Positions 44,973-53,800 of a DNA stretch of 64,000 nucleotides are shown here, piece after piece. Every line of letters begins with the position of its first letter. Position 1 is the first letter of the stretch. The translations under genes and the position numbers were made by a program. Source of the DNA: Bdellovibrionota bacterium (GTDB lineage: Bacteria > Bdellovibrionota_C > UBA2361 > JBIKWN01); NCBI GenBank assembly GCA_044356295.1, contig JBIKWN010000005.1:7176-71175 (forward strand), read 5' to 3'. The notes beneath the pieces are model-generated. The model made no database searches. It was given only the letters and a program-made list of their open reading frames with translations, and was not told where the DNA came from.

Positions 44973-45059
44973 TTTTTTGTAACGCGAAGGTCGCGAAGTA
45001 CGCGAAGGAATTAAATGTAATCCTTCGCGTACTTCGCGACCTTCGCGTTACAAAAAAAA
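44973..45059. repeat. About 85-bp near-perfect palindromic repeat element, copy 1
   Basis: TTTTTT-gtaacgcgaaggtcgcgaagtacgcgaaggaatta-aatgt-aatccttcgcgtacttcgcgaccttcgcgttac-AAAAAAAA. The arms differ by a single unpaired base. It occupies the 120-bp gap between the convergent Snf2 gene and the CitE-like gene. Near-identical copies lie at 51463-51549 and 53714-53800. Confidence 0.9.
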
Positions 45060-45061
45060 TA

Positions 45062-46009
45062 CTACCCAACCCGCTTCAAAACATTCCAGTAATACCGAAA
45101 TGAAGCCCGATCATGAAGTCTATCTTTATAAGAAATAGGTGCCCATTGAGCATTCTTAGCAAGAGTGAGGATCTCTTTAGCAGTATCTACTTCCTCAGCG
45201 CTTGGAGACATTGCGTTTAGTATAGGTTGAATCTGATTTGGATGAATACTCCACATACGAAGGAATCCAAAATGATGTCTTGCTCGAAGTGCGTCATCAT
45301 ATGCAGAGTCTGGATTTTTATAATCTACGGTAACATTGTGAGCAGGGATAATATTATTTCCAAGGCACGCCGCAACAAGACGGCTTTTTGCCCTCATCAG
45401 GATTGGATGCTCGAACTGTTCAGGACTTTGAAAACATTTATCTGATAATGCACCGTGATGGAATGAAACAAAATCCATACAACCAAAATCTAAACCTCTA
45501 AGGAGCGGAAGCGAAGCAATCTGCCATACTTCTTCGACAGCTTTTGGTGTTTCGATAAGAAAATGAATCGGTGGAATTGATACTTTACTCGTATCGCATT
45601 CTTTTTTGTAAGTATCGATAACAGTATCAATAACTTTCTGTCCTTGTTCAAAAGACAAAATTTTTGGAATTGTAAGATGAGAGATAATACCAAAAAGATT
45701 TTTTGCTACAAAATTTAGGTCATCACTAAAATGAGAAGATAGGGGATCATGAATTCTAACCCCAATTTTTTTATAAACATTTTCAGAAGAAGAAATAATG
45801 TTTAAAAAAAGTTGTCTCAACGCAGTTTCTTGTCCTACTGAAGCTCCATCTTCAAGATCACAGGTAATATCGAAACTACCTTTGAAGATCTTTTGCGTTT
45901 CAATACTTTTTAAAATTAATTTTTCATGACCTGCATAATGATCACATGCAGAGCATGAAGGAAGTGGTTTTTCATTTGGAAAAAGTATTGAATCAAGATT
46001 TTCAAACAT
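45062..46009 (-). CDS. HpcH/HpaI aldolase / citrate lyase beta-subunit (CitE)-like protein
   Basis: The C-terminal FGFLRMWSIHPNQIQPI matches the CitE/malyl-CoA-lyase WxIHPxQ motif; the rest of the fold is not independently verified. Confidence 0.55.
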   Translation of the reverse strand: MFENLDSILFPNEKPLPSCSACDHYAGHEKLILKSIETQKIFKGSFDITCDLEDGASVGQETALRQLFLNIISSSENVYKKIGVRIHDPLSSHFSDDLNFVAKNLFGIISHLTIPKILSFEQGQKVIDTVIDTYKKECDTSKVSIPPIHFLIETPKAVEEVWQIASLPLLRGLDFGCMDFVSFHHGALSDKCFQSPEQFEHPILMRAKSRLVAACLGNNIIPAHNVTVDYKNPDSAYDDALRARHHFGFLRMWSIHPNQIQPILNAMSPSAEEVDTAKEILTLAKNAQWAPISYKDRLHDRASFRYYWNVLKRVG

Positions 46010-46025
46010 ATGTAGTAACTTACTG

Positions 46026-46463
46026 TTAACTGTGACGATAAATACTCAACGGATTAAAATTTTTATCGTGAGCTATTCGTAAAGAGCAAAGTTGTCCGAC
46101 GTGGTAGCTTTCGTGTAAGACAATATAATCTGACAACAGCTTTAAAGAATTGACGTTCTTTGATTCCAAAGCATTGGAAATCGTTTTGGATCTTTGGTGT
46201 TGATATTCTGTGAACAAGGATTGAAAAGTGCCTTGTTTGTTCAGATAACTTCCCCATTCGTGAGTTTCGGAATTTAACTGCTTCTCAATGGCTTCAAACA
46301 GCTCTAGGAAATGAGCCAAGGTGAGTCTAGGACTCATCAGGTCAGGCGAGAGGGTCGCTTCATAAAGATTTTCAGGCAGACCTTCAAAGACTTTTTCGAC
46401 CTGAAAACCAACTATTTCTAGCTGATATTGTATAAGTTCTATTGAGCCCATATGAGATGCCAA
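46026..46463 (-). CDS. DinB/YfiT-like hypothetical protein
   Basis: 145-aa helical protein with HxxxH/HESYHVGQ features like the DinB_2 family. This is a weak call. Confidence 0.35.
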   Translation of the reverse strand: MASHMGSIELIQYQLEIVGFQVEKVFEGLPENLYEATLSPDLMSPRLTLAHFLELFEAIEKQLNSETHEWGSYLNKQGTFQSLFTEYQHQRSKTISNALESKNVNSLKLLSDYIVLHESYHVGQLCSLRIAHDKNFNPLSIYRHS

Positions 46464-46552
46464 ATACTAGCCGAAATTCCAAGTTCCGTCAGCTTGAATT
46501 AATTTAGCCCTTCCGGTATTCTTCTTATCCGCTTGTTTTGCAAGCACTGTAT

Positions 46553-46629
46553 GGAGCCGTAGTTCAGTTGGTTAGAACGTCCGCCTGTCACGCGGAAGGT
46601 CGCGGGTTCGAGTCCCGTCGGCTCCGCCA
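46553..46629 (+). tRNA. tRNA-Asp (anticodon GTC)
   Basis: 77 nt: GGAGCCG acceptor stem, AGTTGGTTAGAAC D-arm, anticodon loop CTGTCAC (GTC), T-arm GGTTCGAGTCC, and a 3' end reading CGGCTCCgcca. Confidence 0.95.
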
Positions 46630-51696: not shown

Positions 51697-51706
51697 AAGA
51701 TTCTGA

Positions 51707-51734
51707 TTAACTTTTTGGGCTAAGTAGTCGATCT
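51707..51734 (+). promoter_or_regulatory. Candidate sigma-28 (FliA)-type promoter for the flagellin gene
   Basis: TTAACTTTT-N11-GTCGATCT against the consensus TAAAGTTT-N11-GCCGATAA. It lies about 95 nt upstream of the flagellin ATG and immediately after the inverted-repeat element. Confidence 0.35.
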
Positions 51735-51828
51735 TACGTGTGATGAGAACCCTTTAAGGGGGATCTTGCGCCTGTGGCGTATTTAAAGAGTGTGTGTGTA
51801 AAAAATGCAAAAGGAATTGCAAACATAA

Positions 51829-53685
51829 ATGCCAATCACGATCGCTAGCAACATAGCGTCGCTTGGTGCGCAACGACAACTTGGAAAAGTTTCCGAGTCG
51901 TTAGGTAGTACCTACGAGAGGCTCTCATCAGGAATGAGAATTAATAAAGCATCAGATGATGCTGCAGGGCTCGCAATTGCTTTAAGTCTGAATTCAGATA
52001 CAAGAGTATTTACTCAAGCGGTAAGAAACTTAAATGATGGTATATCGTATCTATCAATCGCTTCTGGAGCACTTGATGCCCTTTCAACTATAGTCATTAG
52101 GCAGAAAGAATTAGCAGAGCAATCTGCAAATGGAACTGTTGGCCTCACGCAACGAAAAAGTATTCAACAAGAGTCAGATGCATTAACAAGAGAATATGCT
52201 CGTATTACTGCAACTGCTACGTTTAATAATCGAAAAATATACGAAGATAATTCCAATAACTTACTATCGTTACAAACAGCCTATAGTGCGATTACATATA
52301 ATCTTGGGCAGTCTCTTGCTGATTATCGTGGTGATGGGACTTTCTCGAGTGGGACAACTGTGGATAGTGCTACATTTTTGGGGCAAGTAGTAATTGCGGA
52401 CCTCAATAATGATGGGAAACAAGATATTATACAGGTCAGAGGTACTGGTGGAAATTTAAGGTATCAACTCGGAAATGGTGATGGAACTTTCCAAAGTGTC
52501 ATTCAGCTTAGCACTGGAAATAGTCCAATTTCAGTATTAGTTGATGATTATAATAAAGATGGTTTCAAAGATTTTGCGATAGTAAATTCACAAGGTAATC
52601 TGCGTGTTGCTTTACAAAATAGCAATGGAACTTTTGGAACTTTTGTTACTTATCAAGGTCCACTTGGAGCAAACACCATGCAGTTAACATCTGGTGATTT
52701 TGATGGTGATGGTATTACTGATCTTTTTTATCAACACGGAAGTTTTACAAGTTGGGTCTTAAGAGGAAATAGTGATGGTAGCTTTCAAGCCCCAGTGACT
52801 GCAGCTAGCACCCTTTTTAATAGTACCGTAAAAGTTGCTGATTTTAATAACGATGGAAAATCTGATTTAGTTTCGATTACATCTGGAACACTAAGAACAT
52901 TTACTTCGAATGGTGATGGCACATTCGCAGTAGGCGCAACAATCTTCTCTGGAATTACCGGTTCAGTTACAGCAGATGTAGGTGATTTTAACCGAGATGG
53001 AATTCAAGATATTGTTTATTCAGATACCACATCTGGGAGGGTATATCTTGCCATTGGTAATGCAAATGGAACTTTTCAAGCTTCTATATCATTCACATCT
53101 TCAGGTGCAAACCCAGGCTCCATAACGACTGGGGATTATAATGGAGATGGATTAGCAGACATAAGTTATCTCACAACTGGTTCAACATCGTTAAGTATTC
53201 GTTTAGGTAATGGTGACGGTAGTTTTCGGGCAGAGACATCATCAGCAATAAGTACTAATGGATCATTTGCTTTTGGGGATGTAAATAATGATGGCTCTGT
53301 TGATCTTGTTTCAGTGAGATCCGATTCCAATTCTAGTGCTCTGTATCTGCAAGGCACACGAACAGAATTTCAAGCAGACTATTTATATCTTTTAGACCAA
53401 AAGAGTGCCCGAAATGCCATCGATCAACTTGAAACAATTTTTAATAAAATTTCTCAAGAACGTTCAATAGTCGGTGCTTCTCTTTCTAGAATTTCAGTCG
53501 GTATACAGACGCTGTCGGATGCAGCGCTACAGTATAAAGCTGCTGAATCAAGGATAAGAGATATTGATGTTGCAGAAGAATCATCAGAACTTACGAAACA
53601 ATCAATTCGCCAACAAGTTGCTGCTTCGATTCTTGGACAAGCTAATCAGCAGCCATCTTTGGCGCTTAGCCTCTTACGATCTTAA
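51829..53685 (+). CDS. Flagellin with a seven-repeat FG-GAP (integrin-alpha-like beta-propeller) insertion in the variable central region
   Basis: The N-terminal D0/D1 region MPITIASNIASLGAQRQLGKVSESLGSTYERLSSGMRINKASDDAAGLAIA... and the C-terminal D1/D0 region ...LSRISVGIQTLSDAALQYKAAESRIRDIDVAEESSELTKQSIRQQVAASILGQANQQPSLALSLL are classical flagellin. Between them are seven D-x-N-x-DG-x-x-D repeats (ADLNNDGKQD, DDYNKDGFKD, SGDFDGDGITD, ADFNNDGKSD, GDFNRDGIQD, GDYNGDGLAD, GDVNNDGSVD), each followed by Gly/Thr/Phe-rich strands. Confidence 0.8.
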   Translation: MPITIASNIASLGAQRQLGKVSESLGSTYERLSSGMRINKASDDAAGLAIALSLNSDTRVFTQAVRNLNDGISYLSIASGALDALSTIVIRQKELAEQSANGTVGLTQRKSIQQESDALTREYARITATATFNNRKIYEDNSNNLLSLQTAYSAITYNLGQSLADYRGDGTFSSGTTVDSATFLGQVVIADLNNDGKQDIIQVRGTGGNLRYQLGNGDGTFQSVIQLSTGNSPISVLVDDYNKDGFKDFAIVNSQGNLRVALQNSNGTFGTFVTYQGPLGANTMQLTSGDFDGDGITDLFYQHGSFTSWVLRGNSDGSFQAPVTAASTLFNSTVKVADFNNDGKSDLVSITSGTLRTFTSNGDGTFAVGATIFSGITGSVTADVGDFNRDGIQDIVYSDTTSGRVYLAIGNANGTFQASISFTSSGANPGSITTGDYNGDGLADISYLTTGSTSLSIRLGNGDGSFRAETSSAISTNGSFAFGDVNNDGSVDLVSVRSDSNSSALYLQGTRTEFQADYLYLLDQKSARNAIDQLETIFNKISQERSIVGASLSRISVGIQTLSDAALQYKAAESRIRDIDVAEESSELTKQSIRQQVAASILGQANQQPSLALSLLRS

Positions 53686-53713
53686 GGGGGACGCTCAGAT
53701 TTTATAACTTTTA

Positions 53714-53800
53714 TTTTTTTTTGTAACGCGAAGGACACGAAGTACGCGAAGGAATTAATTTAATCCTTCGCGTACTTCGCGACCTTCACGTTACAAAAAA
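53714..53800. repeat. About 85-bp palindromic repeat element, copy 3
   Basis: TTTTTTTTT-gtaacgcgaaggacacgaagtacgcgaaggaattaa-ttt-aatccttcgcgtacttcgcgaccttcacgttac-AAAAAA, followed by tatcttcaattatttc as in copy 2. Confidence 0.9.

Follow-up and report, generated by a model that had tools for sequence, protein, structure and literature searches.

Repetitive extragenic palindromic (REP) sequences and the REPINs formed by them are short, dispersed intergenic repeats that form hairpins, and they often occur as inverted dimers, which fold into a larger hairpin. The gaps between unidirectional and between convergent genes are enriched in REPs, as are sites downstream of coding regions, and the REP monomer ends in a conserved unpaired tetranucleotide, either GTAG or CGTC (PMC3733652). 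When they lie between convergent genes, REPs are associated with higher expression of both genes. At 3' untranslated regions (3'-UTRs), E. coli REP325 was found experimentally to have a dual role, as terminator and as stabilizer (bioRxiv 10.64898/2026.03.23.713779). Here we analyze three near-identical 87-bp palindromes, named copies 1 to 3, present in a 64,000-nt stretch of contig JBIKWN010000005.1 (assembly GCA_044356295.1) from a Bdellovibrionota bacterium; this whole stretch is called the window throughout. In the way they work the palindromes are most similar to REPs and REPINs, yet they lack defining features of that family.

The REP or REPIN monomer is an imperfect palindrome of 20-40 bp, whereas each arm of the window palindromes is a non-palindromic array of three 9-mers with a TT[A/C]AC edge. 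The REP head is unpaired, while the window arm begins with GTAAC, which is paired within the palindrome. REPs typically exceed 100 copies per genome and are accompanied by a REP-associated tyrosine transposase (RAYT); in the 64 kb analyzed here there are three copies, and no Y1_Tnp domain was found in the open reading frames (ORFs) scanned. REP families are mostly species- or genus-specific, whereas the nonamer unit recurs across phyla. A preliminary description of this DNA had likened the palindromes to REPs or to miniature inverted-repeat transposable elements (MITEs), which is correct in the broad sense that they are dispersed intergenic repeats able to form hairpins. Its more specific proposal of REPs recognized by a RAYT-like transposase is not supported: the arms are tandem nonamer arrays that have no GTAG or CGTC head and fold weakly in isolation (-6.9 kcal/mol, via CGCG self-pairing), and the search for a transposase of the RAYT type returned neither a Y1 nor any other transposase among the window ORFs scanned. 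No integrase or protelomerase was found among these ORFs either, a set in which those of the flagellar operon at 9.6-22.4 kb were not individually scanned.

MITEs measure about 90-200 bp and have in common with the elements described here sharp-edged terminal inverted repeats, a variable interior, a multi-copy and intergenic distribution and an AT-rich insertion context. Terminal inverted repeats of 37-42 nt (88-100% complementary) are present in the window, which is trivially true for any palindrome. The differences are that no consistent target-site duplication was found (the flanks are GA/TA in copy 1 and TA/TA in copies 2 and 3, which stem from a single duplication event), that no cognate insertion sequence or transposase was identified in the window ORFs scanned or between distant convergent arrays of phage contigs, that the window copies have nearly no interior, and that solo arrays outnumber pairs in the class as a whole. 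Short tandemly repeated repetitive (STRR) sequences of heterocystous cyanobacteria, reportedly described by Mazel et al. in 1990, are likewise intergenic arrays of short tandem units that often form hairpins. STRR units are heptamers of variable copy number and are restricted to cyanobacteria, whereas the units described here are nonamers, almost always three in number, with a conserved boundary and a distribution over many phyla; STRR-style heptamer arrays nevertheless adjoin nonamer arrays in several loci. Long stem-loops are also found after plastid genes, where they are determinants of messenger RNA processing and stability rather than terminators. When the window was compared with Rfam at the gathering threshold only a tRNA-Asp passed, and no family was obtained for the palindromes at this or at an E-value threshold. 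Their sub-threshold matches are generic long hairpins (microRNA precursors and a plastid 3'-UTR family), and the best of them, Plastid-psbJ-2 3'UTR (52 bits vs a gathering score of 65.6), reflects a generic hairpin shape only, with no homology and a bacterial host.

The window elements are a variant of dispersed intergenic palindromic repeats, and the nonamer-array module that underlies them is possibly undescribed, given that no description of it was found in the searchable literature or in Rfam. As a serious but still tentative proposal, we suggest that the palindromes are the most compact form of a seemingly undescribed module, consisting of TT[A/C]AC and exactly three C(A/G)C-GAAG-RR or C(A/G)C-AGAG-RR units, solo or convergent, which is distributed over at least eight phyla (34-70% GC) and about 100 or more uncultivated phage contigs. 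That the specific sequence is kept while the pairing is not would imply a widespread trans-acting partner. If this is true, the partner could be a DNA- or RNA-binding protein or a mobilization machinery, and the arrays would represent a general intergenic 'grammar' of bacteria and phages.

Anatomy of the palindromes

A degenerate 35-nt arm pattern, with up to three mismatches allowed, has six matches in the window, which are both arms of the three copies, while none is expected according to 100 shuffled sequences; this confirms the three sequences at the positions previously assigned to them (Table 1). The copies are also the three longest inverted repeats of the window, with arms of 37 nt at 100% complementarity for copy 1, 42 nt at 90% for copy 2 and 42 nt at 88% for copy 3, and a center of 3-11 nt between them. 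Each arm is arranged as a run of six to nine T followed by GTAA, CGCGAAGGT, CGCGAAGTA, CGCGAAGG and AATTA, and Tandem Repeats Finder (TRF) recognizes all six arms as period-9 tandem arrays of 2.6-3.1 copies. The octamer CGCGAAGG occurs 11 times in the 64 kb, against 0.84 expected, and all 11 occurrences fall within the three palindromes.

The nearly perfect pairing between arms that had been reported for all copies is perfect in copy 1 only, since copies 2 and 3 carry two and three uncompensated mismatches, respectively. These mismatches are CpG transitions (CGCG to CACG, and CGTG in copy 3) plus one T/A difference in a spacer, and judging from their sequences copies 2 and 3 look like CpG-decayed derivatives of a master resembling the intact copy 1. 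Because the arms are almost perfectly complementary, a transcript of either strand, or either DNA strand, can fold into a hairpin of 37-42 bp, whose base is lengthened by pairs between the U-run and the A-run. The predicted energies range from -51 to -73 kcal/mol for the RNA hairpins, which are obtained for both strands, and from -35 to -49 kcal/mol for DNA, with z-scores of -11 to -16. The minus strand of copies 2 and 3 is predicted to fold 7-11 kcal/mol better because two mismatches become G-U pairs there, although with so few events this advantage is only a hint. With regard to composition, the cores have 47-51% GC compared with 38% for the window, so that the GC-rich islands of the preliminary description are modest.

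Contigs from an independent assembly (Logan SRR11638223; loci L023, L031 and L032) end inside copy 1, on both sides of copy 3, or at tRNA-Asp, and carry copy-specific variants such as the CGTG of the right arm of copy 3. The fact that independent contigs reproduce these variants indicates that the copies are not an assembly artifact. In addition, a Joint Genome Institute (JGI) contig of 21,287 nt begins about 70 nt before copy 1. The palindromes break short-read assemblies of the source organism, which matters for the quality of metagenome-assembled genomes.

The nonamer-array module in other genomes and in phage contigs

The 23-nt core of the arm was scanned against one genome per species and against JGI metagenomes, neither of which includes the source organism. 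Non-coding matches were obtained in seven other phyla (Acidobacteriota, Verrucomicrobiota, Bacteroidota (Kapaibacterium), Planctomycetota, Gemmatimonadota, Betaproteobacteria and Cyanobacteriota) and the core also matched metagenome contigs of 34-70% GC; a few matches were coding, corresponding to AKxAK-type peptides. The non-coding matches continue into similar units (CGCGAAGG, CACGAAGG and CGCAAAGG), are preceded by T-rich sequence and [A/C]AC, and often have an inverted array behind them. A 28-29-nt arm core, AACGCGAAGGTCGCGAAGTACGCGAAGG, is shared without any change by the window, Planctomycetota genomes and an unidentified metagenome contig of 53% GC. The combination of TT[A/C]AC with three C(A/G)C-GAAG-RR units behind it is present in genomes of eight phyla. 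Both the 9-nt periodicity of the arms and this cross-phylum, boundary-bearing module go beyond the preliminary description.

The class pattern, defined as three consecutive CRCGAAGNN units, was scanned against IMG/VR and gave at least 120 matches, compared with less than one expected (an estimate from base composition). Among the IMG/VR matches listed, [A/C]AC precedes 87 of 140 non-redundant arrays, and the profile is A-rich at positions -14 to -9, T-rich at -8 to -4, A or C at -3 and AC at -2/-1; the 2-nt spacers vary, with a majority of purines, and the third unit is followed by A-rich sequence and only rarely by a fourth unit. The listed matches of the AGAG flavor (three CRCAGAGNN units) have this boundary as well, T accounting for 87% at -4, and likewise keep to three units. 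Arrays bearing the boundary number at least 51 for GAAG and at least 53 for AGAG, and the boundary-bearing IMG/VR loci at least 49 and at least 45, respectively, which gives at least 94 loci of 47-70% GC. As controls, permuted units were used: none of the arrays in the 33 GAGA loci carries the boundary, and AAGG gave many loci, mostly apparently coding 9-nt repeats, with the boundary in one array. Individual loci of the latter control (three CRCAAGGNN units; L305, L328, L362 and L376) contain 8-18 matches each, on one strand and with a 9-nt period, and from their sequence these clusters are probably collagen-like or other coding triplet-of-codons repeats. A census of nonamer arrays that is blind to the boundary would be confounded by such coding repeats.

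All six window arms present the C(A/G)C-GAAG-NN form three times, and five of them match the strict class pattern, taken from phage contigs, with the sixth being off by one CpG transition. Their boundary, TTTTTTGTAA directly followed by CGCGAAG, fits the edge of the class (T-rich sequence and [A/C]A(C) before the first unit). Among the matches listed, 31 paired arrays have their partner downstream and 2 have it upstream, so that the stem has the T-rich boundary at its 5' base and A-rich sequence at its 3' base; this is the same polarity as that of the T-rich 5' and A-rich 3' flanks in the window, which the preliminary description had already noted. The spacer between paired arrays goes from 10 to 146 nt in the class, and the window, where all three copies are convergent pairs, represents the tight extreme with 3-11 nt. 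The variable dinucleotides of the class are often noncomplementary between arms, resulting in 7-bp helices with small internal loops, and at the level of sequence it is the unit, rather than the pairing, that the class conserves.

The arrays occupy short intergenic gaps in phage and bacterial contigs, with up to seven copies in 13.8 kb on one contig among the matches listed, and in several loci they are adjoined by other types of unit (CGCAGAT, CACTGAT and heptamers such as GTCAGAG). Mixed flavors were observed within a single intergenic region in other phyla and on phage contigs (L003:3226-3560, L015:856-1100, L017:1000-1130, L058:1770-1900, L060 and L051), with units such as CGCGAAGG, CACTGAT, CACAGATG, CGCGGAC, GTCAGAG and AGTGAGC, often each with a T-rich and [A/C]AC edge of its own. 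The presence of different flavors side by side suggests a modular system. Many solo arrays, of both orientations, stop at a distance of 10-35 nt from a start codon (L091:2440-2490 and 4040-4090; L033/L076; L039, L088 and L037), and in the reversed ones the opposite strand of the T-rich boundary supplies the divergent gene with its Shine-Dalgarno-like GAAAGG. A blastn search with the window palindrome and a phage-contig hairpin gave nothing relevant among cultured phages and plasmids.

Possible roles of the palindromes

The three copies are intergenic. Copy 1 is located between convergent genes, namely a SNF2-family helicase gene (plus strand, ending at 44938) and an HpcH/citrate-lyase-like gene (minus strand, stop at 45062), at distances of 34 and 2 nt. 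Copy 3 also has convergent neighbors, the flagellin gene on the plus strand and a 673-aa ORF without Pfam match on the minus strand (ending at 53841), at 28 and 40 nt. Copy 2 lies in a tandem gap, 213 nt past the stop codon of purA and 279 nt ahead of the flagellin start. The earlier statement that every copy occupies a short gap at the 3' end of a gene is thus accurate for copies 1 and 3, while copy 2 is intergenic but not directly at a gene end.

In all copies a T/U-run comes before the hairpin and an A-run after it on both strands, so no U-tract follows the stem on either strand, and a terminator scan finds no site at the three palindromes. This is in agreement with the preliminary description, which had already set them apart from canonical intrinsic terminators. 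Bidirectional intrinsic terminators are comparable in being stable and relatively GC-rich hairpins between convergent genes, with flanking homopolymer runs that can pair, but their order is A-run, hairpin, T-run instead of the T-run, hairpin, A-run of the palindromes, and the stem of a typical intrinsic terminator has 5-14 bp as against 37-42 bp. In the region 44000-56500 the scan detected eight terminator-like sites, compared with 7.9 expected from shuffled sequence, and none was at the gene ends inspected, which suggests that the source organism may depend little on U-tract terminators. With few canonical terminators, and none at these gene ends, some other 3'-end device would therefore be needed.

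An mRNA 3' hairpin and a protein-binding site, both put forward in the preliminary description, are possible functions. We infer, with a probability of roughly one in three, that the palindromes are orientation-independent RNA hairpins that insulate or stabilize the 3' ends of transcripts. A polymerase leaving purA, the SNF2 gene, the flagellin gene or the convergent genes would transcribe the palindrome, and a very stable hairpin would form at the 3' end of the transcript, where it would stop 3'-to-5' exonucleases. The hairpin would also curb read-through into the neighboring unit, either by aiding factor-dependent (possibly Rho) termination or by serving as an RNase III-type processing site, and would do so without the U-tract of an intrinsic terminator; the copies themselves would have arisen by dispersal or duplication of one master sequence. 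This reading is suggested by the location of two copies in convergent gaps, where four stop codons lie 2-40 nt away, and by the dual terminator and stabilizer behavior of E. coli REPs. The stable RNA hairpins of both strands, the downstream position of most partners in the class and, as a weak signal, the better fold of the minus strand also speak for it. Insulation of a strongly expressed gene would also fit, since copies 2 and 3 and a 20-nt inverted repeat surround or precede the flagellin gene, which is presumably highly expressed; copy 2 together with the 20-nt inverted repeat looks like stacked insulation. In these terms the palindromes probably delimit transcripts around the flagellin gene and the two convergent gene pairs, where canonical terminators appear to be scarce.

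Several observations weigh against a role at transcript ends. No compensating changes accompany the mismatches of copies 2 and 3, the class arms often leave their variable dinucleotides unpaired, and 56 of 89 arrays among the matches listed are solo, without a hairpin partner. The stop codon nearest upstream of copy 2 is 213 nt away. A perfect 37-bp RNA duplex would suit RNase III and could destabilize the transcript, and a need for 'any stable hairpin' does not explain the identity of the unit across phyla. Moreover, solo arrays are not biased in orientation with respect to co-oriented flanking genes (12 vs 8, with crude gene calls), nor does the better-folding strand track the transcribed strand (4 vs 3).

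Compatible with the transcript-end role, and only slightly less probable, is the explanation that the palindromes are selfish, non-autonomous DNA of the MITE or REPIN kind, in which the arrays would be terminal repeats bound by a transposase encoded elsewhere and any regulatory effect would be incidental. Copy 1 is nearly identical to copies 2 and 3 and lies in unrelated flanks, the GC content of the cores is above that of the host, and the occurrence of AACGCGAAGGTCGCGAAGTACGCGAAGG in Planctomycetota and in the 53%-GC contig suggests horizontal spread. The sharp TT[A/C]AC outer edge, the inward-facing arms and the variable interior of 10-146 nt are MITE-like, and the contigs with many copies (up to seven in 13.8 kb) and the breakage of short-read assemblies at the copies also speak for this reading. 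Nevertheless, a TA flank suits copies 2 and 3, which count as one duplication event, but not copy 1, and only three copies were seen, all within 9 kb, two of them in a local 108-nt duplication. A transposase was found neither in the scanned ORFs of the window nor between distant convergent arrays in phage contigs, where only a phage integrase and a metallopeptidase are encoded; no protein family is common to the 120 array-bearing loci listed; and the solo arrays are the majority of the class. This last property, together with the independence of array orientation from the genes, which fits an action at the DNA level, is in line with the view that the 9-bp units are protein sites on double-stranded DNA, in the style of a ribbon-helix-helix operator or a plasmid centromere or iteron. 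Three sites per orientation would then form a symmetric operator, an insulator or a nucleoid-organizing site, and the hairpin would be a by-product. The 7-nt core is kept, the 2-nt spacers are variable and do not have to be complementary from one arm to the other, the units are almost always exactly three behind a fixed boundary, and the sequence specificity is evident from the boundary counts (at least 51 GAAG and at least 53 AGAG arrays vs none for GAGA and one for AAGG). We consider such a binding array somewhat less probable than selfish DNA. Against it, no candidate binding protein is encoded near any listed locus, and a single specificity over at least eight phyla plus phages would demand that the protein be very widespread. 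With a period of 9 bp, moreover, consecutive sites do not face the same side of the helix, and the window arms are nearly complementary including their spacers, which protein sites do not require. If a common binding factor or mobilizing enzyme exists, it would explain recurrent unannotated intergenic DNA of many environmental bacteria, DNA that often yields spurious 'hypothetical protein' calls, and it would offer a testable model of REP-like regulation beyond the Proteobacteria.

In favor of a purely local duplication with no special biology, the 98% identity between copies 2 and 3 extends over 108 nt and takes in their flanks, both are preceded by the motif GGGGACGCTCA, and the three copies are confined to 9 kb; the hairpin would then be simply the 3'-UTR of the flagellin gene, recopied nearby by recombination. 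We regard duplication as the only process at work as improbable, because copy 1 has the palindrome in common with the other two but not the flanks, tblastn finds no flagellin pseudogene upstream of copy 2, and unrelated phyla as well as phage contigs carry the module too. A target of site-specific recombination, such as an integron attC site or a hairpin telomere, is the least credible explanation by far. With attC sites they have in common an imperfect palindromic form, a length of about 85 bp and a location at the 3' ends of genes, and their ends (GTAAC...GTTAC) contain the AAC/GTT triplets of the R'' and R' boxes. However, the consensus sequences RYYYAAC and GTTRRRY are matched at only five of seven positions, extrahelical bases and an unpaired central spacer are lacking (copy 1 is perfectly paired), and the 'cassettes' would measure 6.4 and 2.2 kb and include purA, the tRNA and flagellin. 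Neither an integrase nor a protelomerase was found in the ORFs scanned, and the center is not fully dyad-symmetric. The anatomy of the palindromes effectively refutes the attC interpretation. Other candidates, namely extracytoplasmic function (ECF) and sigma-54 promoters, an outward sigma-70 promoter, a coding or leader-peptide function, the P1 parS box A and the d(GCGAAGC) mini-hairpin, were dropped as unsupported.

Gene neighborhood and other repeats of the window

The coordinates of the palindromes and of the other repeats are given in Table 1. The flagellin gene is flanked on both sides by the 108-nt repeats that contain copies 2 and 3, and its product has an unusual, surface-exposed insert of seven FG-GAP/VCBS-type repeats between Flagellin_N and Flagellin_C. 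The source organism is uncultured; its purA is at most 55% identical to its best match in the protein collection, and the few top matches with a named source include Bdellovibrionota metagenome-assembled genomes, which makes the placement of the organism tentative. Similar palindromes are absent from the purA neighborhoods of two of its closest relatives (P0002 and P0005; loci L027-L029).

Table 1. Positions of the palindromes, their arrays and other features in the window
Feature	Coordinates	Strand	Details
Palindrome copy 1	44973..45059		T6 44973-44978, left arm 44979-45013, right arm 45017-45051, A8 45052-45059
Palindrome copy 2	51463..51549		T9, left arm 51472-51506, right arm 51509-51543, A6
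Palindrome copy 3	53714..53800		T9, left arm 53723-53757, right arm 53760-53794 (CGTG variant), A6
Example arm module	44982..45009	+	CGCGAAGGT / CGCGAAGTA / CGCGAAGG, with TTTTTTGTAA just before
Equivalent arrays	45023-45048(-), 51475-51502(+), 51515-51540(-), 53726-53753(+), 53765-53787(-)		TRF
108-nt direct repeat, first	51454..51561	+	contains copy 2; blastn 98.1% identity over 108 nt
108-nt direct repeat, second	53705..53812	+	contains copy 3; blastn partner of 51454-51561
Flagellin gene	51829-53685	+	618 aa
20-nt inverted repeat	51606-51696		GGGGACGCTCACCTTTATAA / TTATAAAGGTGAGCGTCCCC, perfect; spacer 51 nt; DNA fold -24.9 kcal/mol
GGGGACGCTCA(CC) sites	47805, 48644, 51400, 51606, 51686(-), 53687		at most one mismatch

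The 20-nt inverted repeat, located between copy 2 and the flagellin start, is unrelated to the palindromes, and by its sequence it may represent a second hairpin insulator or an element of the MITE type. A tandem repeat with a 17-nt unit (AGTGACCTTTAGGGGAC, 2.6 copies) comes before its left arm, the whole region covering 51578-51696. About 90 nt upstream of the flagellin start, at 51711-51738, the arrangement TAAC-N15-GTCGATCT resembles by eye a sigma-28 (FliA) promoter; if this candidate is real, both hairpin elements would lie upstream of the flagellin promoter.

A second repeat family, GGGGACGCTCA(CC), has six sites in the window, while 0.24 are expected. Three of its copies begin 0-2 nt from plus-strand stop codons (those of the ORFs 46864..47802 and 48462..48644 and of the flagellin gene), and others are found in the vicinity of the palindromes, with one copy 52 nt before copy 2 and another 17 nt before copy 3. 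Beside the tRNA gene, the segment 46026-49824 has the appearance of a small island. Two of its ORFs have no family match, one resembles a BrnA antitoxin and another encodes a DUF4143/AAA_14 ATPase; an integrase was not found in it. In the interval 46553-46760 the tRNA-Asp is followed by a GC-rich stretch containing a perfect heptamer array (GCCCTGA, 3.3 copies, 46692-46714), the purine-rich units CAAAGGGAGT and CGAAGGGAGG, and a terminator-like hairpin at 46737-46758. The GCCCTGA array is a short-unit array of the STRR style, present in the same genome as the palindromes.

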